A DNA stretch of 64,000 nt, taken from a plasmid. Position numbers and translations under genes: made by a program. Positions 23,763 to 49,580 of this stretch are shown here, piece after piece (positions within the stretch are counted from its first letter, which is position 1; the number at the start of each line of letters is the position of its first letter). The notes below the pieces were generated by a model, which saw nothing but the letters and a program-made list of their open reading frames with translations, did not search any database and had not been told where the DNA came from. The stretch is taken from the sequence record CP019900.1. The stretch is one strand, 5' to 3'.

Positions 23763-23869
23763 GGAAGACGACAGGTCTAACCATCAGCGCGATTGCCCGT
23801 GAATTCAATACTACACGACAGACCATTCTCAGAGTAAGAGCGGCAATGGAAGACTCTAACCCTTTGTAG
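23759..23869 (+). CDS. 36-aa helix-turn-helix peptide (possible remnant of a recombinase/transposase DNA-binding domain)
   Basis: MRKTTGLTISAIAREFNTTRQTILRVRAAMEDSNPL; ATGA overlap with upstream ORF. Confidence 0.2.
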   Translation: MRKTTGLTISAIAREFNTTRQTILRVRAAMEDSNPL

Positions 23870-24061
23870 ATAATTGCTTTTTCAATGAATCGCGCCGTTT
23901 ATGCTCTTGTGCTTGATGCCCGCGGGTAGGAGTTAGTACTTAAAGGTATAGGTCAATTTCGCCGGAACACTTGCGCTGGAATGGGATAAAGATGAGATGT
24001 GCCGCGCTCGCTGATATCTGAAAACTGACGAAGGGCAACATCACTTTATATCCTTAAAATA

Positions 24062-24090
24062 AAAGAAAAGCCGACCATAGGTCGGCTACG
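24062..24090 (-). terminator. Rho-independent terminator downstream of the ooxA-like gene
   Basis: on minus strand GTAGCCGACCtatGGTCGGCTTTTCTTTTATTTT. Confidence 0.45.
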
Positions 24091-24140
24091 CAAATTAGCG
24101 ATGCAGCGAACATACATTTAAAACATCATATATGGAGCAT

Positions 24141-25532
24141 TTAGTCGTCTACTTGTAGAGAGATAATTTCACCCAACGTGACAGGTTTCAGCGGTGGTCG
24201 AATACGGTAAAAATCCTGCTGCGTAACCTGACGTTTCTGTTCTGAGGCGATGATATTGGCAATGGTGTATCCACATTGCCTGCCCTGACAGGGGCCCATG
24301 CCCGCGCGTGTAAACGCCTTCAGCTGGTTTATGCCCGGTGAGGCCAGAGCGGCCGCCCGCCGGATGTCGCCGGCGGTGAGTTCTTCGCACCGGCACACAA
24401 TGGTTTCGTCCGCCGGTGAGACCAGACGCTGAGGAGGCGGGTAAAGGGCATCAAGCATGGGGCGAATCCCCAGCAGTTTCTTCAACCTTAACCGTAACGG
24501 CAGTGCCAGCGCATCTGCCTTTTTCTGCGCCAGAAGGCCGGCCCGGAGAGCAATGCCCAGCGCCACAATTTCGCCGCGTGTACAGGCCGCCAGTCCGCCG
24601 CCAATACCGGCGCCGTCTCCGGCAACAGAGATGCCAGCAATACTGCCTCTTCCCCAGATATCAAGCGTGGGCACCAGGCAGTTCTGCTGATGACTCCAGT
24701 GATGTTGCAACCCCAGCGATCGCGTCACGTGAACAGACGGGACAACACCTTCGTGCACAAGCACGGCATTCACGCTGACCCGTCGGGTCACACCACTGGA
24801 AAGGGTATATTCCAGTTCCTGAAGACGGCCTTCACCCAGCGCGCGGAAAGACTGAATGCCACGAATGCGACGCGTACCGGAGCGCTTTATCTGGTTCAGC
24901 CAGACGAGACCTTTGAGAATGTCTTTACGACCCCAGAATGCCTCCCTGAGCCAGGGAAGCGCACGGCGCCATTCTCCGGGCGCGCTGGTATCGAGCCAGC
25001 CCTCTATAGTGCCGCCTGCCCGGATAACCTGAGCCATGTAAAGAATGGGAAGGGGACCACTCCCGACGACCCAGGTCGGGCCTTCAGGTATCTGTCTGGC
25101 ATTTTTCAGCAGGATCTGTGCGCCGCCCACCGGCATTACGCCGGGCAGCGTCCATCCCGGGAACGGCGCAGGTCTTTCCTGTGCGCCGGTGGCCAGAACA
25201 ATCTCTTTGGCCTCAACGGATTCAGTTTTCCCGTCCCTGCGAAGAAATACCCGCCATGAAGGCTCTAACTGCCAGACCTGGGTGTTGGGCTCATAAACGG
25301 CTCCACAGGCCCTGAAATCAGCTGCCACTGAAGCACCTGATTCATACTCTTTACCCAGGATCTGTCCCAGAGGCGAACCGGCAACACCTTCAATATTGCG
25401 CCAGAGCTGGCCGCCCGGTCCCGGCTGTTCATCCACGACCAGCACTGACAGTCCGAACGTCCGCATCCGGATCGCCGCACTCATTCCTGCCGGTCCCGCG
25501 CCAACGACAATCACATCAAATTTGCGGCTCAT
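24141..25532 (-). CDS. Opine oxidase subunit A-like / HcnB-like FAD-NAD(P) oxidoreductase with C-terminal BFD-like [2Fe-2S] domain
   Basis: 463 aa; N-terminal dinucleotide fold VIVVGAGPAGMSAA; C-terminal CRCE...C..RQC cysteine cluster. Confidence 0.7.
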   Translation of the reverse strand: MSRKFDVIVVGAGPAGMSAAIRMRTFGLSVLVVDEQPGPGGQLWRNIEGVAGSPLGQILGKEYESGASVAADFRACGAVYEPNTQVWQLEPSWRVFLRRDGKTESVEAKEIVLATGAQERPAPFPGWTLPGVMPVGGAQILLKNARQIPEGPTWVVGSGPLPILYMAQVIRAGGTIEGWLDTSAPGEWRRALPWLREAFWGRKDILKGLVWLNQIKRSGTRRIRGIQSFRALGEGRLQELEYTLSSGVTRRVSVNAVLVHEGVVPSVHVTRSLGLQHHWSHQQNCLVPTLDIWGRGSIAGISVAGDGAGIGGGLAACTRGEIVALGIALRAGLLAQKKADALALPLRLRLKKLLGIRPMLDALYPPPQRLVSPADETIVCRCEELTAGDIRRAAALASPGINQLKAFTRAGMGPCQGRQCGYTIANIIASEQKRQVTQQDFYRIRPPLKPVTLGEIISLQVDD

Positions 25533-25828
25533 TTGTTCAGACTCCGGCGGCCCATCTGGCGCTCAACATGCATATTGTCCTCAACGGTGACCAGACAGGT
25601 CTGAACCGATCCCTGTCCGTTAACCACGGCCAGACAGTCAAAACAGACGCCCATCATGCAGTAAGGGGCCCGTTCGCTCATCTGTACCGGCGTGGTCCGG
25701 CTCATCAGTTTGCTCTGGCGTAGCAGGACGGCAGCGACGGTTTCGCCTGCTTCCGCTTCCGTTGCCACTCCGTCGATATAGATAACAAGCTTTTGAGAGC
25801 CGGCTGGCTGATTAAGCTTCCTGAACAT
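25529..25828 (-). CDS. Small (2Fe-2S)-binding subunit (HcnA / sarcosine-oxidase-alpha N-terminal type)
   Basis: about 99 aa from MFRKLNQ...; cysteines in ...CMMGVCFDC...; start overlaps upstream gene end. Confidence 0.55.
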   Translation of the reverse strand: MFRKLNQPAGSQKLVIYIDGVATEAEAGETVAAVLLRQSKLMSRTTPVQMSERAPYCMMGVCFDCLAVVNGQGSVQTCLVTVEDNMHVERQMGRRSLNK

Positions 25829-26939
25829 GGAACCGTCCGTAATGAAAAGGTGAAAGGCTGTCCGGGTAGGTGTCGCCTGATGCCAGGATCCGCGCGTACT
25901 GGCTGGCGTGGAAAGACGCCAGGGTGACGCCGGAGTGGCACACGGCAAGATGCGCGCCCGGGCAGGTTACAGAAGAGGCATATACCGGGCTGCCGTCTGG
26001 CGTCATGATCCGCAGAGCGGACCACTGCCGGACTATTTTTGCGCCTGAGAGCGCAGGCAGTGTCTTTATCGCTCTCGCCGCCATACGGGTTGCACCGGCA
26101 GTGGTTGTCGAGAGGTCAAACCCCACATCTTCATGCGTGGCACCGATCATCACGGTTCCTTCAGCAGTCTGACGAATTTCGCCTGATGGCAGTGGAAGGA
26201 ACGATGCCAGCCTTTCTGTGACAAGCAACTGGCCGCGAAGGGGGGCGACGGGAGCTTCAAGCCCCACCATTGGTGCCAGCGTTACGTTACCCAGCCCTGC
26301 AGCCAGCAGGACTTGACCCGAACGGAAACTCGCATGCTCTGTGATGACCTCAAAGCCACCGTCTGCAAGGGATGAAATCTGTCTGACGCGGCTGTTATTC
26401 TGAATAAAGCCACCGCGCAGTAGAAAGGCTTTATGAAGCGCCGAAAGCAGGCGCAGTGGATTGACGTGTCCGTCAGTCGGGCCGAAACACGCACCCACAA
26501 CGTCTTTGCCCAGCCTGATATCGGGAAAGCGGGCGTTCAGTTCGCTGCGGCGTAACATCTGGACTGGATGCGAGAGTTCCGGCATCTGAGCAATCCACTC
26601 ACTCATCTCACGGGAAAAGTTGGAAAATTCTTCTTCGCTCAGGCAAAACTCCAGCCCACCATTATTTTCATAATTGAGGGTGAGCCCGCTTTCGTCTTCG
26701 AGCTCCCGGGCAAAGGCGGGCCATTGTGAGACCGCCTCCACGGAGAGGCGCTGATAGGCCGGATCCCCAAGCCCTTTACCTGCTGACCAGACGAGACCAA
26801 AGTTCGCTTTAGCGGCCCGGAGATCCGTGTCTTCGGCATCCAGCATCAGAACGCGAAGCGGCAGCTTTGATAGTCCCCAGGCGATAGCTGCGCCAGTCAT
26901 ACCAGCACCCACAACTATCAGGTCATACTCACGTTGCAT
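25812..26939 (-). CDS. Opine oxidase subunit B-like / HcnC-like FAD-dependent oxidoreductase (DAO family)
   Basis: 375 aa; N-terminal DLIVVGAGMTGAAIA FAD fold. Confidence 0.7.
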   Translation of the reverse strand: MQREYDLIVVGAGMTGAAIAWGLSKLPLRVLMLDAEDTDLRAAKANFGLVWSAGKGLGDPAYQRLSVEAVSQWPAFARELEDESGLTLNYENNGGLEFCLSEEEFSNFSREMSEWIAQMPELSHPVQMLRRSELNARFPDIRLGKDVVGACFGPTDGHVNPLRLLSALHKAFLLRGGFIQNNSRVRQISSLADGGFEVITEHASFRSGQVLLAAGLGNVTLAPMVGLEAPVAPLRGQLLVTERLASFLPLPSGEIRQTAEGTVMIGATHEDVGFDLSTTTAGATRMAARAIKTLPALSGAKIVRQWSALRIMTPDGSPVYASSVTCPGAHLAVCHSGVTLASFHASQYARILASGDTYPDSLSPFHYGRFHVQEA

Positions 26940-27689
26940 TATGCGGAGTTCCTACAGGCTGAATAATAAACAGTGCTGCTGTCTGGTACTGAACGAGTAA
27001 ACGGCCAAGGGTAGTCCACTGGCCTTGAGTAAAAGACAACAAATTGTCCGGGTCTTTTACAGTGTTTTCTCGGGAGCCCAGAAATACAGGTGCTGCGTGA
27101 CAGGATGCTTGCGAGGTTATACAGCTTCGGCACCGCAGTCATGGATATGAAACAGCGTGAAGAATGCCAATTCAAATGAGTTTCAGAAGGACTTTCATGC
27201 GTAAATGTTATGCATGCATTAAACCGGGCTAGGCCTTGCTGAATACAGTTATTTAATCGTTGTTTTTTCAAAGAAAAATTCATAATTTCTTCAGGGCAAT
27301 AAAAAATCATACTTGTTGCTGAGGGCCATAGTGTTTTCTTATCTGACGAATGAGTTAAAGAAAAGCTCGTTACTGAATGTTTTTGAGGGATGAGTCTATC
27401 ATTCTGATATTAATTGATATTTGTCCCATGAAACCTGACTGGACACATTGTATTAGTTTCGGGCATAACATTCACTCATGACAGCCATCTTATTTTTTAT
27501 TATTCAGTAAACAGGCTTCGTGGCAACACTGCTGACAGGTTTTAAACGTTAATGAAACCATGAAAAAGACTAATTTCACGAAATTATTCTTCCCAATAAA
27601 ACCGCATCTGTAAAAAAACAACTTTAAACAAGGCACGGTCAATAAGCCGCACTGACTTTCTATTTTATTCAACATGAAAGGCCATAATT

Positions 27690-28520
27690 ATGAAATTTGC
27701 TATTGCAACCCTGTTTGCTGCTGCTGCGTTTTCAACTTTTTCAACTTATGCGCAGGATACTATTCAGATTGCTACTGAAGGGGCTTATAAACCTTGGTCG
27801 TTCGTCAATGACAGCGGCAAGCTGGATGGTTTTGAAATTGACCTCACAAATGCGCTTTGCGCACGAATTAAGGCTGAATGCAAAGTATCAGCTCAGAACT
27901 GGGATGGGATGATCCCGGCACTCAAATCAGGCAAGTTTGATGCGATCGTAGCGGCAATGACGATTACGCCAAAGCGACAGGAAGTTATCGGATTTTCCGA
28001 AGCTTACGCAGCGTCACCTAATACGTTTATGGTGCTAAAAGATGGTCCTCTTGCGAACATGAAATCGACCGGAAAAACGTTCGATCTGTCAGACGCTGGA
28101 AACATGGCTGATGCAGAACTGGCTAATATGGCACGGGAACTCAGGGGAAAAACGGTTGGCGTTCAGGTGTCCACAACAGCGGCCTCTTTCCTGCACGACA
28201 AATTAAAAGGGGTAGAGGTTCGTGAATATAAAACGTTTGATGAGTCTGAACTTGATTTGCTTGCCGGACGCGTTGACGCAGTCATGGCAAACATCACCGT
28301 ATTGAGTGATGCGCTCAAACGGAAAGATGCAAGTATTGCCCAGCTTGCCGGTCCTACGCTGGTGGGGTCGCCGTTTAACTCTGTTGCAATAGGACTGCGT
28401 AAAGAAGATGCTGCACTGAAATCTCAGCTGGATGCCGGAATTAAATCTCTGCGTGACGACGGCACAATTAAAAAACTCAGTGAGAAATGGTTCGGGGTGG
28501 ATCTTTCTCCTCGCTCCTGA
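27690..28520 (+). CDS. Periplasmic octopine/nopaline-type (LAO family) substrate-binding protein 1
   Basis: 276 aa with signal peptide; ...IATEG.Y.PW.F....GKLDGFEIDL.NALC...K..C.....NWDG..P.L..GK.DAI.AAM..TPKRQEVIGFS..YA... matches recalled OccJ/NocT. Confidence 0.8.
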   Translation: MKFAIATLFAAAAFSTFSTYAQDTIQIATEGAYKPWSFVNDSGKLDGFEIDLTNALCARIKAECKVSAQNWDGMIPALKSGKFDAIVAAMTITPKRQEVIGFSEAYAASPNTFMVLKDGPLANMKSTGKTFDLSDAGNMADAELANMARELRGKTVGVQVSTTAASFLHDKLKGVEVREYKTFDESELDLLAGRVDAVMANITVLSDALKRKDASIAQLAGPTLVGSPFNSVAIGLRKEDAALKSQLDAGIKSLRDDGTIKKLSEKWFGVDLSPRS

Positions 28521-28719
28521 GATGAAGAGTGTTGCTGCAATTTTAAATCAGCAGGCTGGCGCACGTCGTCAGCCTGTTAACCTTCATATCCTGATTCTCC
28601 CGCGCTGGGCTGTTCGAAAATACTCCCTGCATGTTCATTTAAGAGGAGGATGAATGCACCCGATAAGCACACTGGACTCTTTCATAGTATTTAGTTATGA
28701 CCCTCTCGCTGGATGCGCG

Positions 28720-29631
28720 CTACTCTTTGGGGAGCATCAGCTCTTCCTGTAAAAATCTCCAGAATCCATCTGAAAACTCCGTTGTCAAATCACCCCGGCG
28801 GGATTCCACCGCGCTAAGCTCCGTGAAACCCGCTTCAAGAGAGGGTTCAAAACGTCTGATGATCAGTCCTCTGTCCAGAAACTCGGATGCAGCAAAGTGG
28901 TCGATAACGGCAATAGCCCCACCTTCGAGCACGATTGAACAGGCCGTCAGTGACTGGTTGGTTTCAATCGTTGATGTGCGTTCGATACCCTCAAGAATCA
29001 GACTCAGTCTTTTTGAATAGGTTGAGCCGGGATCCACTTCGATGATGTTTTCACCAATAAGATCGCTGCGGGTCAGCACCATTTTTTCAGCCAGCGGGTG
29101 GCCTTGCGGCAGGGCCACCACGGCATCAATTGAACGCTGGCGACAAAGCATACCTGCACGGTTGAACTGAAAATCCACATAGCCCAGTTCAGCATCACCC
29201 GAGGCGACTTTTTCGATAACAGCGGGTGACGTCGCTGCTTCGAGAGAGACGTGCAGACCTTTTCGGCCCCGGACAAAGCGCCCTACATAGCGCGCAAGCA
29301 TACCCGCTGCCAGAGCTGGCATGGCAAATATTCGCAGCGTACCGGCGAAGTTACGACCAATATCCTGCGCCGCACGTCCTATCCGGTCCAGTCCCACAAA
29401 GGCACTCTGTACTTCCCGCATTAACGTGAACGCAGCCGGCGTCGGAAGCAGCCGGTTGCCGCGCCGATCAAACAGATGAAGATTAGTTGCCCTTTCAAAA
29501 TCGGCAATCAGCCGGCTGACGGCGGGCTGAGTCACAAACATGAGCTCGGCCGCGGCGGTTATCTGTCCTGTCAGCATTACTGCCCGGAATGCTTCGACCT
29601 GTCTTAGATTTAGGCGGTGCGTCTGGTGCAT
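28720..29631 (-). CDS. LysR-family regulator, OccR/NocR-like
   Basis: N-terminus LNLRQVEAFRAVMLTGQITAAAELMFVTQPAVSRLIADFE and downstream blocks match recalled OccR; divergent from the permease operon. Confidence 0.8.
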   Translation of the reverse strand: MHQTHRLNLRQVEAFRAVMLTGQITAAAELMFVTQPAVSRLIADFERATNLHLFDRRGNRLLPTPAAFTLMREVQSAFVGLDRIGRAAQDIGRNFAGTLRIFAMPALAAGMLARYVGRFVRGRKGLHVSLEAATSPAVIEKVASGDAELGYVDFQFNRAGMLCRQRSIDAVVALPQGHPLAEKMVLTRSDLIGENIIEVDPGSTYSKRLSLILEGIERTSTIETNQSLTACSIVLEGGAIAVIDHFAASEFLDRGLIIRRFEPSLEAGFTELSAVESRRGDLTTEFSDGFWRFLQEELMLPKE

Positions 29632-29913
29632 AACATCTCCTTATGACGCAATTCTCCTGTACCGGTAAAATCCTTGAATCCTGTGAGCAGAGATCTGTAA
29701 AGCTACAGGTGAATACAGTAAGGAGGAGTTGAGGTCATAAATAATCAGTATTCAGCTCAAACTAACACCAAAATCCCACGTGATTCAATGTGTAATAGGA
29801 AGCATAATATTTAGTAATGCAAGGTCGGCAAATTTTGATTTTTCACATTCGCCATTCCGTTGCAACACTGCTGTAACAGTGAATAAGCATTTGTGCAATA
29901 CGAAGGTTGAGCT

Positions 29914-30633
29914 ATGTCGATATTTGAACTTTTCTCGTTCGGAGAGGGAGGGTGGGGTTATCTGCTGCTGAGTGCGTTGATAACCACGCTTGGCCTCGCT
30001 ATCGCAGGGATGTGCCTGGGTGCAGTGTTTGGCATTTGTGGCGCGCTTTCTGCCTTATCTGGCATACACGTGTTGCAAGCCTTGACCCGTGTTTACACCA
30101 CTATTATGAGGGGCATTCCCGATCTGCTCGTTGTTTATTTGTTTTACTTCGGGTCATCAAGCGCTCTGACAGCGATAGCACATTTGTTCGGGGCAAAGGG
30201 ATTTGTCGGAGCGCCGGAATTTGCCATTGGCGTCTTTGCGCTGGGGATTGTTTCGGGTGCTTACCTTACGGAAGTTTTCCGTGGAGCGATTCAGGCTATC
30301 GATAAAGGTGAAATAGAGGCTGCGCTGGCTTTTGGCATGCGCCTTCGCCAGCGAATGGTTCGGATTGTTCTGCCACTTGCCTTCCGACATGCACTGTCCG
30401 GGATTGGTAATGTCTGGCAGATGGTTCTGAAAGAAACGGCGTTGCTGTCTGTCATTGGCGTGGTCGAACTTATGCGACAGTCGCAAATTGCCGGCGGTTC
30501 AACGCACAAATATTTTACGTTCTACCTGGCGGCCGCGCTGATTTACTTCGCTATTTCATGGATATCAGGGCGTGGTTTTGCCCGCGCAGAAAAATATACC
30601 ATGCGATCCCTTAACCGCAATTCAGGGCAATAA
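29914..30633 (+). CDS. ABC permease (OccQ/HisQ-like)
   Basis: 239-aa polytopic protein with EAA-like loop ...EAALAFGM... Confidence 0.8.
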   Translation: MSIFELFSFGEGGWGYLLLSALITTLGLAIAGMCLGAVFGICGALSALSGIHVLQALTRVYTTIMRGIPDLLVVYLFYFGSSSALTAIAHLFGAKGFVGAPEFAIGVFALGIVSGAYLTEVFRGAIQAIDKGEIEAALAFGMRLRQRMVRIVLPLAFRHALSGIGNVWQMVLKETALLSVIGVVELMRQSQIAGGSTHKYFTFYLAAALIYFAISWISGRGFARAEKYTMRSLNRNSGQ

Positions 30634-30635
30634 AC

Positions 30636-31355
30636 ATGCTAAACGAAGCCACGTTCATCTATGAAATGTTTATTCGCATGCTGCCCGGTATTCCTCTGAC
30701 ACTGCAGCTTGCAGCAACGTCTATTGCATGCGGTGGTTGCCTTGGGCTGGTGCTGGCCCTGATGCGAACCTCAGGCTGGGCATTGCTGGATGCATTTGCG
30801 CGTGCCTACATCGCCCTTTTCCGTGGAACCCCACTTCTTGTCCAGATTTACCTGATTTATTACGGTCTGAGCCAGTACCCTGAGCTGCGGTCCAGTGTGC
30901 TTTGGCCGCTCCTGCGCCAGCCATGGTGGTGTGCTGTTCTGGCGATGTCACTGAATACGGCAGCGTACGTCGCGGAGATTATTCGCGGCTCAATTATCAC
31001 CGTGCCAAGAGGGCAGGTTGAAGCCGCCATGGCTTGTGGCATGAGCACCGTACTGATGTACCGCCGCATCATTATCCCACAGGCTCTGGTTCGCATGCTC
31101 CCAGCATATGGCAATGAAATCATCCTGATGGTGAAAGCCACCGCCCTGGCCTCAACAATCACGCTGATGGAGGTCACGGGGCTTGCAGCACAGGCGATTT
31201 CAGAAACCTATCGCCCGGTCGAAGTTTTTGCCGCTGCCGGTGTTATTTATCTGGGACTGAATTTCCTGATGGTCAGCATTATTCGGTTGCTTGAGAAAAA
31301 GACCTCAACGGAGGCATCGTCCGGGAAACAAACGCTCAAACGAAGCTATTTCTGA
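30636..31355 (+). CDS. ABC permease (OccM/HisM-like)
   Basis: 239 aa; ...EAAMACGMS... EAA loop; 2-nt spacing from the previous permease. Confidence 0.8.
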   Translation: MLNEATFIYEMFIRMLPGIPLTLQLAATSIACGGCLGLVLALMRTSGWALLDAFARAYIALFRGTPLLVQIYLIYYGLSQYPELRSSVLWPLLRQPWWCAVLAMSLNTAAYVAEIIRGSIITVPRGQVEAAMACGMSTVLMYRRIIIPQALVRMLPAYGNEIILMVKATALASTITLMEVTGLAAQAISETYRPVEVFAAAGVIYLGLNFLMVSIIRLLEKKTSTEASSGKQTLKRSYF

Positions 31356-31455
31356 TTTCGCCAACCCGGTGATGTTTACAGCCGGGAGTTTACCGGCACG
31401 CTGCGTTCCAGCGTGCCGATTGAAACCAACATCACAAAAAAATCAGGACAGTAAA

Positions 31456-32292
31456 ATGAAACTAGCCCTTGCCACACTCATTGCCATTCTCTCCGCAGCA
31501 GCAGTTCCTGCACAGGCTCAGGACACCATTAAAATTGCAACCGAAGCCTCTTTTGCCCCCTGGTCCTTTACCAACGCATCAGGAAAGCTTGATGGATTTG
31601 AAATTGAATTTGCAGATGCGCTGTGCACCCGTATTCAAGCGAAGTGCCTGGTCAGCAACCAGAGCTGGGATGGTCTGATCCCCTCGCTGAATGCCGGAAA
31701 ATACGATGCGATTGTTGCCTCTATGAGCATTACGCCGAAACGCCTGGAGGTTATTGACTTCTCTTCACCTTACGCTGCCTCCACTAACTCGTTCCTGGTT
31801 TTAAATGGAAGCCCTGCAGGCGATTTAGACTCCACCGGCATCAACCTGGGTCTGGAAGCGGATAAAGAAAAAGCTGATAAAGCCATCGGAATTATCGATA
31901 AACAACTGAGTGGAAAAATCGTTGGGGTACAGGCTTCAACCACGGGAGCCACATTCATGGCATCACGCTTACCGTCAGCTGAAGTGCGCGAATACAAGAC
32001 CATGGATGAAGCCACGATGGATCTTGCTGCTGGCCGTATTGATGCGCTGCTGGGCAACGTCACTGTACTGCAGACGTCGCTTAAGCGGGACGATATGAAA
32101 GATGCGAAGCTGACCGGTCCGCTCTTCCAGGGTAAAGCTTTCGGGGAAGTGGGCATCGGACTGCGTAAGGGCGACAGCGCGCTTAAAGAACAGCTTAATA
32201 GCGGAATTAAATCACTGAGTCAGGACGGTACCCTCAAAAAGCTGAGCATCAAATGGTTTGGTGTGGATATAACACCGTCTGCCGTTAAATAA
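31456..32292 (+). CDS. Periplasmic octopine/nopaline-type substrate-binding protein 2
   Basis: start MKLALATLIAILSAAAVPAQAQDT (signal peptide) inside ORF 31291-32292; paralog of SBP1. Confidence 0.75.
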   Translation: MKLALATLIAILSAAAVPAQAQDTIKIATEASFAPWSFTNASGKLDGFEIEFADALCTRIQAKCLVSNQSWDGLIPSLNAGKYDAIVASMSITPKRLEVIDFSSPYAASTNSFLVLNGSPAGDLDSTGINLGLEADKEKADKAIGIIDKQLSGKIVGVQASTTGATFMASRLPSAEVREYKTMDEATMDLAAGRIDALLGNVTVLQTSLKRDDMKDAKLTGPLFQGKAFGEVGIGLRKGDSALKEQLNSGIKSLSQDGTLKKLSIKWFGVDITPSAVK

Positions 32293-32348
32293 AAAAGCAA
32301 TCGCAAAATATTAATTAAATTTATTTTTGATATCGCTTCCTTGTATGT

Positions 32349-32372
32349 GTCATTTAATGGCCTGCATGCAGG
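32349..32372 (+). terminator. Rho-independent terminator after SBP2
   Basis: GGCCTGCATGCAGGCC then TATTTTTTAT. Confidence 0.55.
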
Positions 32373-32516
32373 CCTATTTTTTATAGTTACAGGGTTGCCG
32401 AAACAAATAAGAGTCATATTCACACGCAAAAAGTATATGCGTAATGAGGGGCGCAGATTGCTGATACCCTACAGGGTTTCCTGCGCCTGAAATAAGACAG
32501 AATACTGAGGTTCATC

Positions 32517-33746
32517 GTGAACGAGACGAATATTCAACGCAGTAATTTCGACAGCCTGATGGTTCCCGCTTATTCGCCAGCAGAATTTATTCCCGTAAGA
32601 GGAAAAGGTTCCCATCTCTGGGATCAGGCCGGTAATCAGTATATAGACCTTGCTGGTGGCATCGCGGTTAATGCCTTGGGACACGCCCATCCCGTAGCCG
32701 TTCAGGCGCTGCAGGAGCAGGGCAATCTTCTCTGGCACCTCGGTAACGGTTATACCAATGAACCGGTATTGCGTCTGGCAAAACAACTGACAGAGTCAAC
32801 CTTTGCCGATAAAGCCTTCTTCTGCAATTCCGGTGCAGAGGCCAATGAGGCGGCACTGAAGCTGGCCCGTAAGGTGGCGCGCGATAACGGCCAGCCAGGT
32901 AAAACCGGCATTATTGCCTTTAACAATGCCTTTCATGGGCGCACCCTGTTTACCGTGAGCGCCGGTGGTCAGCCAAAATACTCCGAAGAGTTCGCACCGT
33001 TACCACAGGGCATTGAACACGTGCCTTATAACGACCTGGCGGCAGTCGCTGACCTGATCAGCAACGAAACCTGCGCGGTAATTGTTGAGCCGGTTCAGGG
33101 GGAAGGTGGTGTTCTCCCGGCTGACGCGGATTTTCTGCAGGGACTGAGAGCACTGTGTGACAAGCATAAGGCACTGCTCATTTTCGATGAAGTGCAGACA
33201 GGCGTGGGACGTACCGGTGACCTCTATGCGTATATGGCCTATGGCGTTGTGCCTGATGTGCTGACCACGGCAAAAGCGCTGGGTGGTGGATTTCCGATCG
33301 GCGCAATGCTGACCACTGATGCACTGGCGGCATCTATGTCCCCTGGAACGCACGGCACGACATACGGTGGCAATCCGCTGGCGTCAGCGGTGGCTGGCGC
33401 CGTATTTAACTTCATCAATACGCCTGAAGTGCTTGAGGGCGTTCGTGAACGACACCGCTATTTTGTTGAGGGCATTTCGCGCCTCAACGAGAAATTCGGT
33501 GTGTTTACCGAAATCCGCGGCGCAGGCCTGCTGCTCGGTTGCCAGATGGAAAGCCGGTTTAGTGGCAAAGCGAAGCAGCTCACAACGCTTGCCAGCGAAG
33601 AAGGATTGCTTTTGCTGATTGCCGGGCCGAACGTCGTGCGTCTCACGCCTTCCCTGATCATTCCGTTTGCTGACATCGATGAGGGACTTCACCGTCTTGA
33701 GCGCGCGATGACCCGATTCGTTGCAACACAGGCACCGCAGTCATGA
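32517..33746 (+). CDS. astC: Succinylornithine transaminase
   Basis: GTG start after GAGG; near-colinear with recalled E. coli AstC (…[30 protein letters not shown]…). Confidence 0.85.
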
Positions 33747-34767
33747 TGCTTATCCGCCACGCGGAACCCCGCGATCTGGATGATTTGCTGATTCTGGCTG
33801 AAAAAGCCGGATTCGGACTGACGTCACTGCCGGTCAATGACGTCACGCTGGCCGCACGCATCGAACGTGCACGAAAAACGCTGCGCGGAGAGCTCGATAA
33901 AATGGATCAGGGCTATGTGCTGGTGCTGGAAGATACGGCGGTTGGCCGCGTGGTGGGTATCAGTGCCATTGAGGTGGCCGTTGGTCTCTCTGAGCCCTGG
34001 TATAACTTCCGCGTCGGCAATCAGGTTCATGCCTCAAGAGAACTCAGTGTATATAAGGCGATGCCTACGCTCTATCTGAGTAATGACTTAACCGGTCACA
34101 GCGAGCTCTGCACGCTTTTCCTGGACCCGGATTACCGGCACAGCCACAACGGCAAGCTCCTGTCCAAAATCCGTTTGCTGTTTATTTCGGCGTTCCGTGA
34201 GCACTTTTCTCCCAAAGTCATTGCGGAGATGCGCGGCTACTCTGATGAGAACGGGCGCTCTCCGTTCTGGGCCGCGCTCGGACAGCACTTTTTCAACATG
34301 GACTTTGTCCGGGCAGACTACCTCAGCGGTACCGGGCAGAAGGCGTTTATCGCAGAACTGATGCCGCGAAACCCGCTATATATCGACTTCCTGCCCGCTG
34401 ATGCCCGTGAAGTCATCAGCGTGGTGCATCCACACACGGAACCCGCCAGAAAGCTGCTCGAAGCTGAGGGCCTGAGCTATCAGGGATTCGTAGATATCTT
34501 TGATGGTGGCCCCACGCTTGAGGCTGAACTCAGCAAGCTCCGGGTGATGCGTGAAAGCAAATGTCTCCGGGCTGTCTGCGGCCAGCCGCCGGCCGAGGGG
34601 GTGCTTTGTCTGGTTTCAAACACAAACTACCTGAACTATCGCGCTGTTCTCAGCACTTTCACCCCAGAAGCAGACACCGTTGCTCTGACCGAGGCTGACT
34701 GCGACGCTCTTGGCATCGGTGAAGGGGATCAGGTTCACATCGTTGCGCTCAACTCACGGGAAACATT

Positions 34768-34771
<4 letters not shown>
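33743..34771 (+). CDS. astA: Arginine N-succinyltransferase
   Basis: [13 protein letters not shown]... aligns with recalled AstA (MMVIRPVERSDV...). Confidence 0.85.
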
Positions 34772-36245
<1,474 letters not shown>

Positions 36246-36256
36246 TGGAGCCAATC

Positions 36257-37594
36257 ATGTCAGGAACTGAAGTCAATTTTGATGGGCTGGTAGGCCCGAC
36301 GCACCACTATGCGGGGCTGTCCTTCGGGAATGAAGCGTCCACCAGGTACCGTAATACCGTTGCCAATCCCAGGCTGGCGGCAAAGCAGGGGCTGATGAAA
36401 ATGAAGGCCCTTGCCGATATGGGCATGATCCAAGGGGTGATGGCTCCGCATGAACGCCCCCATATTCCTCAGCTGCGCAGGCTGGGATTCAGCGGCAGCG
36501 ATGAGGCCATTTTGCAGCAGGCGATGCGGTATTCGCCTCAGTTGTTATCAGCCCTGTGCTCGGCCTCTTCCATGTGGACGGCGAATGCGGCAACGGTCTC
36601 GCCATCAGCGGACAGCCGGGATGGTCGTGTCCACTTCACGGCGGCGAATCTGAATAACAAGTTCCATCGCTCGATAGAGCCGGAGACGACCTCCGCGCTT
36701 CTGCGCGCCATGTTCCGAAGCGAGGCCCATTTCGCACATCACGATTCCCTCCCGCAGGTGGCAATGATGGGGGATGAAGGGGCGGCCAACCATAACCGAC
36801 TTGGTGGAGACTATGGTTCGAAAAGCGTTCAGGTCTTCGTATACGGCCAGCATATGCTCGGCTCTGTGCCGGGGCCTTCCCGTTATCCTGCCCGTCAGAC
36901 ACGCGAGGCCAGCGAAGCAATAGCCCGGCTGCATCAGCTGGATCCGGATTACACCGTGTTTGTGCAGCAAAACCCTGACGTCATCGATCAGGGGGTGTTC
37001 CATAACGACGTGATAGCCGTCAGCAATCAGCAGGTGCTCTTTGTGCACCAGCAGGCTTTTCTGCAGCAGGCGTCGGCGCTGGATGAAATACGTCGCAAAG
37101 TCGCGCTGACCGGGCGTGAGCTGGTCACGATTGAGGTTCCATCAGACAGCGTTTCGGTCCCGGAGGCGGTGAGCACCTATCTTTTCAACAGCCAGCTGCT
37201 GACGCGCCGTGACGGGGGTATGACGCTGGTTGTGCCTGAAGAATGCCGTCAGAATCCGCGCGTCTGGGCATATCTGTCAGAAATGACGTCAACCACGCCG
37301 GTGGACCAGGTCTGTGTGTTTGATCTGAGGGAGAGTATGCGTAACGGCGGCGGACCCGCGTGCCTGCGTCTGCGCGTGGCGCTGACGGAGCAGGAACTGT
37401 CCGCTGTAAACCCAGATGTGCTCCTTGATGACGCTCTGTACAGCAGGCTGGACCGCTGGATTGAGCGCCACTATCGCGACCGGCTGACCCAGGAAGATTT
37501 GGCCGATCCTTCACTGCTACGGGAAAGCCGTACGGCTCTGGATGAACTGACCATCATTCTCGGGCTGGGGTCTGTTTATCCGTTCCAGCAATAA
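36257..37594 (+). CDS. astB: N-succinylarginine dihydrolase
   Basis: [28 protein letters not shown]... matches recalled AstB. Confidence 0.85.
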
Positions 37595-37639
37595 ACGTAA
37601 CCCCGGCAGGCCTATCTGTCCGGGTGCAGGAGTACAGCA

Positions 37640-38641
37640 ATGAATTTTTTCCTGGAAGATACTCTCCGGAGCACCATACCTCAGCTTCAGAGAGGAGAGA
37701 GGCAAAATCTGCACTGGCGCTGGCTGGGGGAGGGGATCATGGAGTTGACCCCGACTACGGGATACCGGGAGTCCGTGGTTATTTCGGCGGGGATACACGG
37801 AAATGAAACGGCACCAATTGAGCTGCTGGATCTTATTCTGAGCGATTTGCTCTCCGGAAAGCTGGCACTGCGCGTACGTCTTCTGGTTATCCTGGGTAAT
37901 CCTCCCGCTATGCGTGCTGGTAAGCGATATCTGTCGACGGATATGAACCGTATGTTCAGCGGGCGCCATAAAGATTTTACGCCCAGTTACGAAACAGAGC
38001 GCACGCGCAAACTGGAAGCCGTGATGACAGCTTTCTGGTCAACAAGCTCATCGGTAAAGGGCGCCTCTCGTTTCCACTACGATTTACACACGGCGATTAA
38101 AGGCTCCCATCTGCCGCGCTTCGGTTTGCTTCCCTTCCAGAACCGCCCATATCACCGTGAACTGTTAAAACGACTTGAAGCAGCCGATCTGGATGCTCTG
38201 GTAATGCACCAGGAGACCGGAAATACCTTCAGTCACTTTAGCAGTGAGCAGTTTCTGGCAGAGAGTTGCACGCTGGAGTTGGGCAAAGCGAATCCTTTTG
38301 GTGAAAACAAGCTATCGGATTTCAGGGCAATAGACCGTGTGCTTCGGGCCCACCTTGGTGGCCTGCCGTTTCCGCACAGAAGTTTGCCACCGGTACGCCT
38401 CTTCCGGGTGGATCGTACGCTTGTCAAACATGCCGATGACTTTGAGCTGGGGGTGCCTTCAGAGACGCTTAATTTCACTCAATTTGAAAAAGGTGCAGTC
38501 CTGTGCCGGGAAAATGGTTCTGAACAGCGCGTTGAAAACGATCAGGAGTGGATGCTCTTTCCAAACCCCGGTGTTCAGACCGGTATGCGGGCGGGGCTGA
38601 TGCTGACGGAACTTAACCGATGGGTTCATTCTTCGCCCTAA
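37640..38641 (+). CDS. astE: Succinylglutamate desuccinylase
   Basis: ...WRWLGEG..ELTP......VISAGIHGNETAP.E.LD... matches recalled AstE. Confidence 0.8.
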   Translation: MNFFLEDTLRSTIPQLQRGERQNLHWRWLGEGIMELTPTTGYRESVVISAGIHGNETAPIELLDLILSDLLSGKLALRVRLLVILGNPPAMRAGKRYLSTDMNRMFSGRHKDFTPSYETERTRKLEAVMTAFWSTSSSVKGASRFHYDLHTAIKGSHLPRFGLLPFQNRPYHRELLKRLEAADLDALVMHQETGNTFSHFSSEQFLAESCTLELGKANPFGENKLSDFRAIDRVLRAHLGGLPFPHRSLPPVRLFRVDRTLVKHADDFELGVPSETLNFTQFEKGAVLCRENGSEQRVENDQEWMLFPNPGVQTGMRAGLMLTELNRWVHSSP

Positions 38642-38682
38642 AGACCGCATTTCATGAATATTCGATTTACCGGGGAAAACCT

Positions 38683-39456
38683 ATGTCAGAAACAAAATTA
38701 GTTGTAACCGAACTGCACAAGAAATATGGCGAACATGAAGTTCTCAAAGGGGTATCCCTCACGGCCAGTTCAGGTGATGTGATATCAATCATCGGGTCAT
38801 CCGGTTCGGGTAAAAGCACGTTTTTACGCTGTATCAATTTCCTTGAAAAACCCAGTGAGGGAACGATTCGAATTGGCAATACAGATGTTGGTCTGGTTCG
38901 AGACAAAGATGGCGAACTTCGGGTCTTTGATAAAAATCAGCTGCAATTGTTAAGAACGCGCCTTGCCATGGTATTCCAGGGCTTCAATTTATGGAGCCAC
39001 ATGACGGTACTGGAAAACGTCATGGAATGCCCTGTGCACGTTTTAGGCGTCAGTAAGGAAGAGGCCCGTAATAAGGCCGTAGCCTATCTGAATAAGGTCA
39101 ATATCAGCGAGCAGGCTTTCAACCGACATCCATCTCAGTTATCTGGTGGACAGCAGCAACGCGTGTCCATTGCCCGTGCGCTGGCGATGGAGCCTGAAGT
39201 TATTCTGTTTGATGAACCTACGTCAGCACTGGATCCGGAGCTGGTAGGCGAGGTGCTTAAAATCATGCAGCAGCTTGCTGAAGAAGGGAAGACGATGATA
39301 GTGGTAACTCACGAAATGGAGTTTGCACGCCATGTGTCGAACAAGGTGGTGTTTCTGCATCAGGGCAAAATTGAAGAGCAGGGCTCTCCACAAGAGTTAT
39401 TTGATAATCCTAAGAGTCTGCGTCTTCAGCAGTTTTTATCAGGTTCACTGAAATAA
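38683..39456 (+). CDS. Polar amino acid/opine ABC transporter ATP-binding protein (HisP/OccP-like)
   Basis: Walker A GSSGSGKST, signature LSGGQQQRV, Walker B ILFDEPTSALD; ATG at 38683 inside ORF 38620-39456. Confidence 0.8.
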   Translation: MSETKLVVTELHKKYGEHEVLKGVSLTASSGDVISIIGSSGSGKSTFLRCINFLEKPSEGTIRIGNTDVGLVRDKDGELRVFDKNQLQLLRTRLAMVFQGFNLWSHMTVLENVMECPVHVLGVSKEEARNKAVAYLNKVNISEQAFNRHPSQLSGGQQQRVSIARALAMEPEVILFDEPTSALDPELVGEVLKIMQQLAEEGKTMIVVTHEMEFARHVSNKVVFLHQGKIEEQGSPQELFDNPKSLRLQQFLSGSLK

Positions 39457-39484
39457 ACCATTAATCAGTTTATCAGGAATAAAA

Positions 39485-39841
39485 ATGAGTAACGATATTC
39501 AAAGAATACAGAGTAATGAGCGTCTCAGTCGGGTTGTAGTCCACAACGGTATCGCCTATTTGTCAGGTGTGACAGCAAACGATACGACAACCGGCGTAAT
39601 GGCGCAGACTTCGGATGTGTTGGGCAAGATTGATGCCTATCTCGAATTGGCTGGAACCGACAAATCCCGTCTTTTGTCCGTACAAATTTGGCTGAGGGAT
39701 ATCGACAGAGATTTTGATGATATGAACAAAGCCTGGGCTCAATGGATACCAGAAGGGTCTGCACCTGCCAGAGCAACGGGTGAGGGCCGGCTGGCAGGTG
39801 CGGATATTTTGGTTGAAATGATTGTTACTGCTGCAATCTAA
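39485..39841 (+). CDS. RidA/YjgF family enamine/imine deaminase
   Basis: 118 aa, YjgF-like. Confidence 0.7.
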   Translation: MSNDIQRIQSNERLSRVVVHNGIAYLSGVTANDTTTGVMAQTSDVLGKIDAYLELAGTDKSRLLSVQIWLRDIDRDFDDMNKAWAQWIPEGSAPARATGEGRLAGADILVEMIVTAAI

Positions 39842-40112
39842 TTCGTAAAAATAAATATTTTTTTAACCCTCGGCTGGAGATCCCGGCCGATAATGATTCT
39901 GAACCGAAAATCCTTCTTCATTCAGTATCAGAGCCCCGGGCTTTATACATACTCCCCTATACGTTGACTAAGTTCTGATAACCACTATTAAAAAAATTTT
40001 CTGGGTTACTTTAGCTACTTTCCTCTCACTGTCTTTCATATCTAATTAAGTGATGACATAAAAGTATACCCTAATGTCACAACATGAATTTAACCTGTTT
40101 AGGGGGCTGAGG

Positions 40113-41169
40113 GGCTTTGTTGAATAAATCGAACTTTTGCTGAGTTGAAGGATCAGATCACGCATCTTCCCGACAACGCAGACCGTTCCGTGGCAAAGCA
40201 AAAGTTCAAAATCACCAACTGGCCCACCTACAATAAAGCCCTCATCAACCGTGGCTCCATAACTTTCTGGCTGGATGATGAAGCTATTCAGGCCTGGTAT
40301 GAGTCAGCAACACCTTCTTCACGAGGCAGACCTCAGCGCTATTCTGACCTTGCCATCACGACTGTGCTGGTCATTAAACGCGTATTCAGGCTGACCCTGC
40401 GCGCTGCGCAGGGCTTTATTGATTCCATTTTTTCTCTGATGAACGTTCCGCTACGTTGCCCGGATTACAGCTGTGTCAGCAGGCGGGCAAAGTCGGTTAA
40501 CGTCAGTTTCAAAACGTTCACCCGGGGTGAAATCGCGCATCTGGTGATTGATTCCACCGGGCTGAAGGTCTTTGGTGAAGGCGAGTGGAAAGTCAAAAAG
40601 CATGGCCAGGAACGCCGTCGTATATGGCGAAAGTTGCATCTGGCAGTTGACAGCAACACACATGAAATCATCTGTGCAGACCTGTCGCTGAACAATGTGA
40701 CGGACTCAGAAGCCTTCCCGGGTCTTATCCGGCAGACTCACAGAAAAATCAGGGCAGCATCGGCAGACGGCGCTTACGACACCCGGCTCTGTCACGATGA
40801 ACTGCGGCGTAAGAAAATCAGCGCGCTTATCCCTCCCCGAAAAGGTGCGGGTTACTGGCCCGGTGAATATGCAGACCGTAACCGTGCAGTGGCTAATCAG
40901 CGAATGACCGGGAGTAATGCGCGGTGGAAATGGACAACAGATTACAACCGTCGCTCGATAGCGGAAACGGCGATGTACCGGGTAAAACAGCTGTTCGGGG
41001 GTTCACTGACGCTGCGTGACTACGATGGTCAGGTTGCGGAGGCTATGGCCCTGGTACGAGCGCTGAACAAAATGACGAAAGCAGGTATGCCTGAAAGCGT
41101 GCGTATTGCCTGAAAACACAACCCGCTACGGGGGAGACTTACCCGAAATCTGATTTATTCAACAAAGCC
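40113..41169 (+). mobile_element. IS903 copy 2 (1057 bp) with perfect 9-bp target site duplication GGGCTGAGG (40104-40112 and 41170-41178)
   Basis: IRs GGCTTTGTTGAATAAATC / rc; identical 9-mers abut both ends. Confidence 0.9.
40145..41113 (+). CDS. IS903 transposase (differs from copy 1 at 2 aa and about 20 nt, mostly clustered)
   Basis: 322-aa ORF. Confidence 0.9.
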   Translation: MKDQITHLPDNADRSVAKQKFKITNWPTYNKALINRGSITFWLDDEAIQAWYESATPSSRGRPQRYSDLAITTVLVIKRVFRLTLRAAQGFIDSIFSLMNVPLRCPDYSCVSRRAKSVNVSFKTFTRGEIAHLVIDSTGLKVFGEGEWKVKKHGQERRRIWRKLHLAVDSNTHEIICADLSLNNVTDSEAFPGLIRQTHRKIRAASADGAYDTRLCHDELRRKKISALIPPRKGAGYWPGEYADRNRAVANQRMTGSNARWKWTTDYNRRSIAETAMYRVKQLFGGSLTLRDYDGQVAEAMALVRALNKMTKAGMPESVRIA

Positions 41170-46401: not shown

Positions 46402-46463
46402 CAGCAACATGCCGTCCTGGGGGCGGCAATTATTTATCCCGGCCGCAATATGAGGAATGCAGA

Positions 46464-47741: not shown

Positions 47742-48232
47742 TTGCGGAGCAAGCGATTCGGTTGTTGGCAAGTAAAGGGGGTCCGCTTGGAAAACGGAAT
47801 CTATGGTCACTCCCGTTTTTGCAACACCGATTTTGACGACAAGTTGGCTTGCTTGAATCTATCCGGCGTCTGAATGGGATTTTATTCCCGCGCCTCGATG
47901 AGTTCCGCGCCTGATGAACCTCCAGAAAATATACGGCTTCAATGAGCCTTTCCGTTTTACAGGTTCCTCAACAGGCCGGTGGGCCGTTAGTATCATCAAT
48001 ATCAGTATTCGCAAAACCAGATGAATGATTGTTTAAACTGGTGTATTTCTGCCTTTATGCTTCGTAAGTTTGCTGTCGCGCCGTCAGTGCCCAGGCTATT
48101 CTGGCCAGCTTGTTTGCCAGAGCACAGGTGACGACAAAGTTGCTTTTCCGACACAACAACTCCCTGACCCAGTCGGCCAACTTGCCAGACTGGTGTTCCA
48201 GTTTTTGTATACTTCAAAAGGGACGAATTTGT

Positions 48233-49533: not shown

Positions 49534-49580
49534 AAATTTTGCCTGTACATATATGTTTTTACGAATATGAGGTGTTAAAG

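Follow-up and report, generated by a model that had tools for sequence, protein, structure and literature searches.

Which compound is taken up and degraded by a cluster of importer, oxidase and arginine-degradation genes that lies on a plasmid, and from where was the cluster acquired? The question is raised by a 64,000-nucleotide stretch of plasmid record CP019900.1 (hereafter the window, to which all coordinates refer), where 15 genes between positions 24141 and 39841 combine an octopine-type importer, a LysR-type regulator, a three-subunit flavin dehydrogenase, the arginine succinyltransferase (AST) operon astCADBE, and a gene of the Rid family. With a probability of roughly 0.65, the cluster would be an occ-type regulon for the uptake and catabolism of octopine-family opines, that is, N2-(1-carboxyethyl)-L-arginine and close relatives, which would have evolved in plant-associated Erwiniaceae and been captured later by F-type plasmids of Klebsiella and Raoultella.

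A Block of 15 Genes Inherited as a Unit

24056..40079, no strand: the whole acquired block (opine/AST island), with limits set by homology to Erwiniaceae DNA (blastn)

The region between these limits is one inherited, acquired block of 16 kb with 15 genes in the window. The gene inventory was compiled from the open reading frame (ORF) listing, Pfam and NCBIfam scans, and the annotation of an identical plasmid by the Prokaryotic Genome Annotation Pipeline (PGAP). All genes listed in the first-pass annotation, which was made from the letters of this DNA alone, were found at their coordinates by ORFs, Pfam matches, and PGAP names. A 123-aa ORF at 26939-27310 was rejected as a gene, having no Pfam or NCBIfam match, being omitted by PGAP, and having its frame broken by indels in the Erwinia and Pantoea copies.

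A 48-kb contig of Erwinia billingiae (JBDFQQ010000013) is collinear with the block at 91.2% nucleotide identity over 16,045 bp (blastn) and keeps all 15 genes in identical order, beside a GH32/sugar ATP-binding cassette (ABC) cluster; the Logan contig L064 gave a collinear match as well. For the chromosome of Pantoea sp. YR343, blastn identity is 90.9% for 24056-29290 and 76.9%, inverted, for 30421-39550. Both strains were reached via cluster members at least 90% identical to the exact proteins. For every gene the ratio of nonsynonymous to synonymous substitution rates (dN/dS) against the Erwinia allele is 0.025-0.13, with dS of 0.13-0.43, and all gene lengths are equal. The low dN/dS values indicate that every one of the 15 genes, those of the two binding proteins and the Rid protein among them, has been under purifying selection. 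Since the same 15 genes stand in the same order in E. billingiae with low dN/dS throughout, the grouping is not a matter of chance.

A synteny search, proposed beforehand as a check, thus located the collinear block in four PLSDB plasmids and in E. billingiae, and a variant of it in YR343. The combination had been described as plasmid-borne. It is indeed found on plasmids but is not specific to them, being chromosomal in YR343 and also present on the E. billingiae contig. The YR343 locus (AKIT02000001.1, 1194725-1215555) is a hybrid of a dehydrogenase/SBP1 half at 91% and an inverted transporter/ast half at 77%, with breakpoints inside the regulator gene, truncated to 194 aa, and near the rid gene. 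The G+C content is 53-59% for the ast and dehydrogenase (odhBCA) genes and 47-50% for the genes of both binding proteins, the ATPase, and the Rid protein, a contrast that fits an old insertion of ast into the transporter operon.

An Importer with Two OccJ-Like Binding Proteins

27690..28520, plus strand: SBP1, an OccJ-like periplasmic binding protein (PDB match OccJ, 5ORE, 1.1e-83)
29914..30633, plus strand: OccQ-like ABC permease (Pfam BPD_transp_1; 55.3% identical to OccQ, 42.2% to NocQ)
30636..31355, plus strand: OccM-like ABC permease (57.4% identical to OccM, 50.9% to NocM)
31456..32292, plus strand: SBP2, an OccJ-like periplasmic binding protein (PDB match OccJ, 7.2e-81)
38683..39456, plus strand: ABC ATPase, OccP/NocP-like, separated from the permeases by astCADBE (Pfam ABC_tran)

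The proposal of two octopine/nopaline-type binding proteins with two permeases and an ATPase is well founded. Among solved structures, both binding proteins match OccJ best, by a margin of about 24 orders of magnitude over NocT (1.1e-59 for SBP1, 2.4e-58 for SBP2) and of about 45 over the lysine-arginine-ornithine (LAO) binding protein (~1e-35 and ~1e-33), and both keep most of the octopine signature. The permeases pair with OccQ (55%) and OccM (57%), and the ATPase is 61.2% identical to NocP, 57.1% to OccP, and 63.2% to a Serratia ATPase; its start is most likely at 38683 (257 aa), as in PGAP, and not at the longest-ORF start. The resulting gene order is Q-M-T2-(astCADBE)-P-rid, plus an extra binding-protein gene upstream of the regulator, and not a contiguous occQMPT.

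The octopine signature was defined as E30-Y33-W71-S91-R96-Q159-N111-T163-A164-N202 (Vigouroux et al., PMC5740067), with E30, Y/F33, W71, R96, and Q159 assigned to the arginine moiety and S/T91, N111, T163, A/G164, and N202 to the pyruvate moiety. Nine of these ten residues are found in SBP1, the exception being S91T, and eight in SBP2, which deviates by Y33F and A164G and keeps Ser91. In OccJ, Ser91 is decisive for nanomolar octopine affinity and excludes the bulkier nopaline (PMC5740067). In the same alignment, the binding proteins encoded beside related dehydrogenases on two contigs described below (L002 and L067) show the NocT signature G-M-S-H-S, and that of Serratia a variant, G-I-S-N-S; these three proteins are 61-70% identical to NocT (Serratia, 67%). 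Because such noc-type neighbours show the NocT signature, the alignment does separate the occ and noc types. The YR343 allele of SBP2 has Gly91, in line with a remark in PMC5740067, where two Pantoea paralogues of OccJ are mentioned in passing. Octopine binding by SBP1 and SBP2 is thereby predicted.

One might instead see here a generic island for scavenging arginine and other basic amino acids, with the binding proteins importing free arginine for the AST pathway and the dehydrogenase and Rid genes being unrelated neighbours, for example, a D-amino-acid or imino-acid dehydrogenase unit. OccJ itself binds arginine with micromolar affinity (PMC5740067), and both binding proteins lie at the threshold of the NCBIfam Lys/Arg/Orn subfamily TIGR01096 (250.9 and 256.1 bits against a cut-off of 256.35), after which PGAP names SBP2. 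Moreover, other Klebsiella plasmids fuse an ast-like operon to a hisQMP-type transporter without odh genes, and Rid2 proteins act on iminoarginine. On the other side, both binding proteins lack the LAO-specific pocket (Asp11, Ser69/70, Leu117, Gln122, Asp161) and have that of OccJ; regulator and operator are both of the OccR type; and odhBCA accompanies the transporter and ast genes in every allele seen, with a dS resembling theirs. We regard the scavenging explanation as quite improbable. Descent from generic histidine or LAO systems, which the first-pass annotation had named as the outcome that would speak against an opine module, was checked and is not what we find: the binding proteins match OccJ best and the regulator is OccR-type.

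An OccR-Type Regulator and Its Candidate Operator

28720..29631, minus strand: OccR-like LysR-type regulator (52.6% identical to OccR), divergent from the permease operon and converging on SBP1
29630..29644, no strand: putative operator dyad ATAACATCTCCTTAT (T-N11-A, ATAA-N7-TTAT type), abutting the regulator start codon
29674..29703, plus strand: promoter-like TTGAAT-18-TAAAGC with the block TGTAAAGCT, shared with the region upstream of Ti occQ; putative promoter
27464..27534, no strand: putative control elements between the beta-subunit and SBP1 genes, consisting of a degenerate second dyad CATAACATTCACTCATGAC (27464) and the 12-mer GCAACACTGCTG (27523)
32359..32384, plus strand: terminator-like hairpin and T-run between SBP2 and astC, GGCCTGCATGCAGGCC followed by TATTTTTTAT, conserved in Erwinia

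The divergently transcribed regulator had been likened to OccR of Agrobacterium, and this resemblance is confirmed at several levels, a similar dyad among them. Its best non-self plasmid matches are the OccR proteins of octopine-type Ti plasmids, 52.6-52.9% identical over 97% of the length, and its top PDB match is the OccR ligand-binding domain (5VVH, 2.6e-42; the next match, 4.8e-15). Identity to the second LysR-type regulator flanking the noc region of pTiC58 is 33.9%.

The regulator gene diverges from the OccQ-like permease gene across a gap of 282 bp. At its edge, the dyad ATAACATCTCCTTAT is identical at 14 of 15 positions to Ti ATAACATCTGCTTAT, the one ATAA-N7-TTAT dyad between the occR and occQ genes, situated 9 nt from the start codon of occR. 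The window dyad has no second copy in the 64 kb, even with up to three mismatches allowed, and is invariant in Erwinia. We take the mapped high-affinity OccR site to be of the form ATAA-N7-TTAT, and the equation of that site with this dyad depends in part on this assumption. The block TGTAAAGCT follows the dyad at 51 nt in the window and at 41 nt in Ti, which differ by about one helical turn. The high-affinity, highly symmetric OccR site was located at an inverted repeat at -64 of occQ (PMC5002191, PMC11495319).

A second candidate control region separates the beta-subunit and SBP1 genes. Its degenerate dyad CATAACATTCACTCATGAC is conserved in Erwinia and Pantoea, and a minus-strand promoter-like site lies at 27526-27499. 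The 12-mer GCAACACTGCTG occurs in exactly two copies in 64 kb (27523-27534 and 29862-29873), one per control region of the island; the pair could represent a second regulator site or paralogous promoters. A palindrome, CACTG-N6-CAGTG, at 29866-29881 includes the GCAACACTGCTG sequence, about 40 nt upstream of the first permease gene. A sigma-54 promoter was considered for the shared GCAACACTGCTG/TGGCAA motif and rejected, as its GG and GC elements are spaced 3 nt more closely than in the consensus.

A non-coding stretch of about 300 nt directly upstream of the beta-subunit gene (26940-27230) is conserved like coding DNA among the plasmid, Erwinia, and Pantoea. The minus-strand promoters are predicted about 550 nt from the beta start codon, which implies a long leader. 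A search for riboswitches or leader RNAs gave no Rfam match at E ≤ 0.1 anywhere in 23800-40300.

A Dehydrogenase of the Odh/Oox/Nox Type

25812..26939, minus strand: beta (catalytic) subunit of the DAO family, OdhB/OoxB/NoxB-like (Pfam DAO, 1.8e-54)
25529..25828, minus strand: gamma subunit, 99 aa, small [2Fe-2S] protein, OdhC-like (Pfam Fer2_4, 1e-20)
24141..25532, minus strand: alpha subunit, OdhA/NoxA/OoxA-like, with flavin adenine dinucleotide (FAD) and BFD-type [2Fe-2S] domains (Pfam Pyr_redox_2, Fer2_BFD, SO_alpha_A3)

The heterotrimeric flavin opine dehydrogenases are encoded by tandem overlapping beta, gamma, and alpha genes (Watanabe et al., PMC4575208), and the opposite-strand FAD/[2Fe-2S] enzyme of opine-oxidase type postulated for this locus was borne out by the same architecture, the gene overlaps, and the cofactor motifs. 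The beta and gamma genes overlap by 17 nt (25812-25828) and the gamma and alpha genes by 4 nt (25529-25532). Both alpha and beta have GxGxxG at residue 11, beta has RxW (RQW) at residue 304, and gamma has Cx4Cx2Cx12C at residue 57; the alpha motif reads CxC-x32-C-x4-C, the spacing x32 differing from the x15-20 written in PMC4575208.

The alpha subunit is 46.8% identical to NoxA, 39.5% to OoxA, and 68.7% to its Serratia homolog; for beta the values are 40.6% (OoxB), 40.8% (NoxB), and 60.9% (Serratia), and gamma is 44-45% identical to the unnamed 2Fe-2S ORFs between ooxB and ooxA and between noxB and noxA. The biochemically validated OdhB and OdhA of Pseudomonas putida were reported to be 39.6/40.4% (beta) and 40.5/48.1% (alpha) identical to Oox/Nox of A. 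tumefaciens (PMC4575208), and the values for the window enzyme are almost equal to these. Pfam scans of the block revealed no gene of the hydroxyproline pathway (epimerase, deaminase, KGSADH) and no hcnABC order; the alternatives of a D-hydroxyproline dehydrogenase or a hydrogen cyanide (HCN) synthase were set aside on this gene neighbourhood. Homology makes an enzyme of the Odh/Oox/Nox type probable, with opine dehydrogenase type 1 as its presumptive clade.

Outside the clade of Erwiniaceae and plasmid enzymes, the closest relatives of beta fall into two groups. The first consists of homologs at 78-81%, one of them beside a NocT-signature transporter; the second is large (about 55-63%) and includes proteins from Serratia, Pandoraea, Pseudomonas, Burkholderiaceae, and Variovorax, some deposited as "nopaline dehydrogenase." Around the related dehydrogenase of L067 there are genes for an integrase, ParA, AlpA, an OprD porin, and a Rid protein, and in P. 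syringae an Opp-type transporter and a gene of the ornithine cyclodeaminase family. As the neighbourhoods vary in this way, the dehydrogenase appears to travel with interchangeable uptake and downstream modules. The closest homolog outside the clade (beta 78%, alpha 83%) lies on L002, a 12-kb Logan contig from SRR14517502, with genes for a transporter bearing the NocT signature, a luciferase-like monooxygenase, a flavin reductase, and one more divergent binding protein, a neighbourhood that suggests another substrate or downstream chemistry.

An Embedded AST Operon

32517..33746, plus strand: astC, succinylornithine transaminase (Pfam Aminotran_3, 1e-124; PGAP name on the identical plasmid)
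33743..34771, plus strand: astA, arginine N-succinyltransferase (Pfam AstA, 3e-128; PGAP astA)
34768..36245, plus strand: astD, succinylglutamate-semialdehyde dehydrogenase, frameshifted here (two Aldedh halves)
36257..37594, plus strand: astB, succinylarginine dihydrolase (Pfam AstB, 6e-213; PGAP start and name)
37640..38641, plus strand: astE, succinylglutamate desuccinylase (Pfam AstE_AspA_cat and hybrid domains)

A complete astCADBE operon had been placed between the SBP2 and ATPase genes, and all five genes are there with strong family scores, astD being frameshifted in this window. The embedding is found in two Erwiniaceae alleles with a nucleotide difference of about 23%, and Pfam and NCBIfam scans of the block genes detected neither an arginase nor a gene of the ornithine cyclodeaminase family. 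A further link between the two pathways exists on the chromosome of Serratia sp. 1D1416 (CP032738.1, 5137314-5158495), where astCADBE has as its back-to-back neighbour a noc-type cluster (beta-gamma-alpha, ATPase, binding protein, two permeases, LysR, and hydantoinase B/A, as in pTiC58); in this case the island could have landed beside a native ast operon. We infer that AST replaces arginase and ornithine cyclodeaminase as the arginine sink, and this is strengthened by the preservation of the embedding in alleles at 91% and 77% identity and by the independent adjacency of odh and ast genes in Serratia.

A different ast module (NZ_CP036439.1, 45557-64720) is found on about 40 further Klebsiella plasmids and on two transconjugant plasmids of E. 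coli. Its order is Lrp/AsnC regulator, ornithine cyclodeaminase, CtlX citrulline hydrolase, astC, astA, astD, and astE, followed, without astB, by a hisQ/M/P-type transporter, a binding protein, and alanine racemase. In appearance, it is a form of AST for ornithine/citrulline that has been joined to an importer.

In the window, astD is split into parts of 253 and 237 aa by the loss of one G at about 35511-35517 (G6 here, G7 in the references). Adding one G restores an ORF of 492 aa, and the gene is intact in four otherwise identical plasmids and in Erwinia. This frameshift, the split astD, beta, or astC genes of other assemblies, the truncation of the YR343 regulator by the inversion, and the Klebsiella hosts, which have no known opine exposure, would all be expected of a non-functional or decaying cargo that hitch-hikes on Klebsiella plasmids. 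Such an account seems to us very improbable, since four complete plasmids from four hosts are all 100% identical and intact, the exact proteins occur on more than 500 contigs, and the frameshift concerns a single base of a G7 homopolymer, as is typical of errors in long reads, and other genes are broken too in the assembly that has it in common.

A Rid2-Type Protein

39485..39841, plus strand: Rid2-subfamily imine deaminase (PDB PSPTO_0102, 3e-36; PA5083, 7e-25)

The gene after that of the ATPase had been called ridA. It does belong to the Rid family, but to the Rid2 type and not to archetypal RidA, under whose model it scores 33.8 bits against a cut-off of 106. The P-A-R motif is kept, "APARAT" being aligned to "APARAT/APSRTT" of PSPTO_0102/PA5083, so that the equivalent of RidA Arg105, the catalytic arginine, is retained. 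PSPTO_0102 and PA5083 are Rid2 proteins that deaminate iminoarginine, unlike RidA and Rid1 (PMC5619798).

The presence of a Rid gene beside the oxidase is known already from the Ti occ operon, where a RidA-family ORF, 39% identical to the window protein, follows ooxA. Two Rid genes also accompany the OdhB1-C-A-B2 cluster of Azospirillum. The Rid association is a recurring feature of opine dehydrogenase loci and not a novelty of this plasmid.

The Predicted Pathway and Its Substrate

In the pathway that we propose, every step of which derives from homology, SBP1 and SBP2 would hand the opine to the two OccQ/OccM-like permeases, for which the ATPase from the end of the operon would supply the energy. 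The beta-gamma-alpha enzyme would then oxidise the secondary amine and pass the electrons to the respiratory chain, and hydrolysis of the resulting imine, spontaneous or accelerated by the Rid2 protein, would yield L-arginine and pyruvate. AstA, AstB, AstC, AstD, and AstE would convert arginine to glutamate, succinate, two NH3, and CO2, in place of the arginase/ornithine cyclodeaminase route of Ti plasmids. The OccR-like regulator is expected to bind the ATAA-N7-TTAT dyad and to activate the unit of permease, SBP2, ast, ATPase, and rid genes when the opine is present, and probably acts on the divergent odhBCA and SBP1 promoters too.

Several observations weigh against octopine-family opines as the substrate or against a functional pathway. 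SBP1 carries threonine and not serine at the critical position 91, and both binding proteins, about 50-54% identical to OccJ, lie below the subgroup (>69%) to which octopine binding was assigned in PMC5740067. The dehydrogenase is no closer to OoxAB than to NoxAB, it was set apart from D-hydroxyproline dehydrogenase and HCN synthase by gene neighbourhood, and substrate range in the opine dehydrogenase family is not predictable from sequence (PMC4575208). The copy of astD in the window is split. A Rahnella crown-gall isolate with an oox-like and transporter cluster did not grow on octopine or nopaline (PMC10745273), and the clinical and sewage settings of the plasmids offer no obvious source of octopine.

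Accordingly, one has to consider that the same architecture serves another substrate, namely, some other arginine or basic amino acid substituted at N-alpha but distinct from the crown-gall opines (for example, a stereoisomer, a carboxyalkyl-arginine from microbes or from animals such as molluscs, or a nopaline-like compound), the link to crown galls being only ancestral. The level of identity to OccJ, the substitutions S91T in SBP1 and Y33F/A164G in SBP2, and the failure of the Rahnella strain favour this view, as do the dehydrogenase, which is closest (61-69%) to a Serratia enzyme encoded beside a NocT-like binding protein, and the origin of the plasmid hosts from humans, a dog, and sewage. 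However, both binding proteins preserve the guanidinium-stacking and carboxylate contacts and four of the five pyruvate-moiety residues. Nopaline, being bulkier, is said to be excluded by a hydroxyl residue at position 91 (PMC5740067), the pathway downstream acts specifically on arginine, and the OccR-type operator is conserved. We consider a substrate of this other kind unlikely, and octopine-family opines remain the preferred prediction.

It is rather unlikely, in our opinion, that the island is a niche-defining nutritional trait of a successful Klebsiella/Raoultella plasmid lineage, feeding on an arginine conjugate outside crown galls. If it were, molluscan or seafood octopine in the gut or sewage and plant or microbial compounds of the carboxyethyl-arginine type would be the candidates, the two binding proteins would widen the substrate range, and opine catabolism would become a transferable colonisation factor in Enterobacteriaceae with AST as its dedicated downstream route.

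Distribution and Plasmid Setting

40113..41169, plus strand: IS903B, 1057 bp, with a DDE transposase, flanked by the 9-bp direct repeat GGGCTGAGG; context only, not part of the system

Four PLSDB plasmids contain the 15.7-kb region at 100% identity, two from K. oxytoca, one from K. pneumoniae (dog), and one from Raoultella ornithinolytica (sewage sludge), and a fifth has part of it; the hosts of the plasmids came from humans, one dog, and sewage. The exact SBP1, SBP2, and AstA proteins are each found on 501-537 public contigs. The exact gamma protein is found in 1207 index blocks, and all ten of the places listed have a traI-traX-finO-DUF6404 neighbourhood. None of 5426 complete E. coli genomes has the block. 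A search of genome contigs with SBP2 gave only binding proteins of alphaproteobacteria and metagenome-assembled genomes, at 25-51% identity, and by tblastn the same 44 loci contain no Odh, OccR-like, or AST genes.

The block had been said to be carried between copies of the insertion sequence IS903. This is literally true, two copies being present in direct orientation (12814-13870 and 40113-41169), but the pair does not explain mobilisation. Only the right copy abuts the block, 34 bp beyond it, and a 9-bp duplication of its own, GGGCTGAGG, shows that it arrived separately, by simple insertion. The left copy is 10 kb away, without a target duplication, at the truncated 5' end of traD. A composite transposon is ruled out, as there is no shared outer target-site duplication and the block is not directly bounded by both copies.

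In 12814-15536, which includes the left IS903 copy, the traD remnant encodes 520 aa, where related plasmids have 768-770 aa. It lacks a TraD_N match and enters the TrwB domain at position 80; this plasmid copy is probably no longer self-transmissible. Gene calls on related contigs place a 36-aa fragment of HTH_7 type (resolvase/invertase-like) roughly 190 bp beyond the left border, at 23759-23869 by correspondence with 11960-12070 of the locus L051; the element that brought the block in may have left it behind. Towards the right, the window has (44398-53050) betT, whose product is a choline transporter of the BCCT family, as well as a DUF2254 gene, arsA/arsB, and a number of transposase genes of the Tn3 family. 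At 63040-63544 there is a G+C-rich tandem array, 13.6 copies of the 37-bp unit TGGGAATCGGCCCACCTTGCCGGGCGCCGCTGCCGTG with 89% matching, spanned by overlapping ORFs on both strands. The whole window has no single counterpart in PLSDB, where the best record covers 70-73% of either flank.

Comparison with Known Systems

In the library searched, no paper connects octopine or other opines to an AST operon, to Klebsiella plasmids, or to strain YR343. What the island is made of and its general logic are known already, and it is not a new class of system; new are the AST operon embedded in an importer operon, the duplicated receptor, the Enterobacterales hosts, in which an OccR-type operator is conserved, and the dissemination on F-type plasmids. 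If our interpretation is true, the full occ logic (OccR with its operator, OccJ-type receptor, Oox-type dehydrogenase, and Rid) reaches from the Ti plasmids of Rhizobiaceae into Enterobacterales, AST for arginase and ornithine cyclodeaminase is a case of modular pathway replacement, and a catabolic island of the plant niche has moved from Erwinia/Pantoea chromosomes to conjugative-type plasmids. The carrier plasmids circulate in clinical, animal, and sewage Klebsiella and Raoultella, with more than 500 public contigs, and the natural OccJ variants (Thr91; Ser91/Phe33/Gly164) and the OccR homolog could be used in biosensor work.

The closest counterpart is the occ region of the Ti plasmid (NC_002377), organised as occR / occQMPT(J)-ooxB-(2Fe-2S)-ooxA-ridA-...-ocd. 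Both systems have a divergent OccR-type regulator with a near-identical dyad, OccQ/OccM-type permeases, OccJ-type binding proteins with all or most of the octopine signature, a beta-gamma-alpha dehydrogenase, and a RidA-family gene. In contrast to Ti occ, the window uses astCADBE for arginine and not ornithine cyclodeaminase (or the arginase of the noc region), it has two binding proteins instead of one, its ATPase gene sits beyond ast and is closer to NocP, and its dehydrogenase genes form a separate divergent unit with an alpha subunit closer to NoxA. Its lineage is Enterobacterales, and there is no linkage to traR and quorum sensing.

The noc region of pTiC58 and the Serratia sp. 1D1416 cluster (CP032738) likewise combine a NoxB-gamma-NoxA-type dehydrogenase, 61-69% identical in Serratia, with an ABC importer. 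However, the transporter and binding protein of these loci are of the NocT type (G97/M117/H170/S207 or a variant), their regulator is only about 32% identical, and in Serratia the ast operon is adjacent, not embedded.

The "octopine/nopaline transporter" genes, in TQMP order, that serve as KEGG-based markers of K. variicola and K. quasipneumoniae belong to a different locus. Compared with enterobacterial astCADBE, the window has all five genes in the canonical order. The E. coli ast operon stands alone under nitrogen and stationary-phase control, whereas that of the window lies inside an ABC-importer operon, presumably under the OccR-type regulator. Finally, the island shares the B-C-A gene order, the overlapping ORFs, and the FAD, flavin mononucleotide (FMN), and [2Fe-2S] motifs with OdhABC of P. 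putida KT2440, a nopaline dehydrogenase, and of Bradyrhizobium japonicum (PMC4575208); for those two loci, no AST operon, OccR-type operator, or binding proteins with the OccJ signature are reported.

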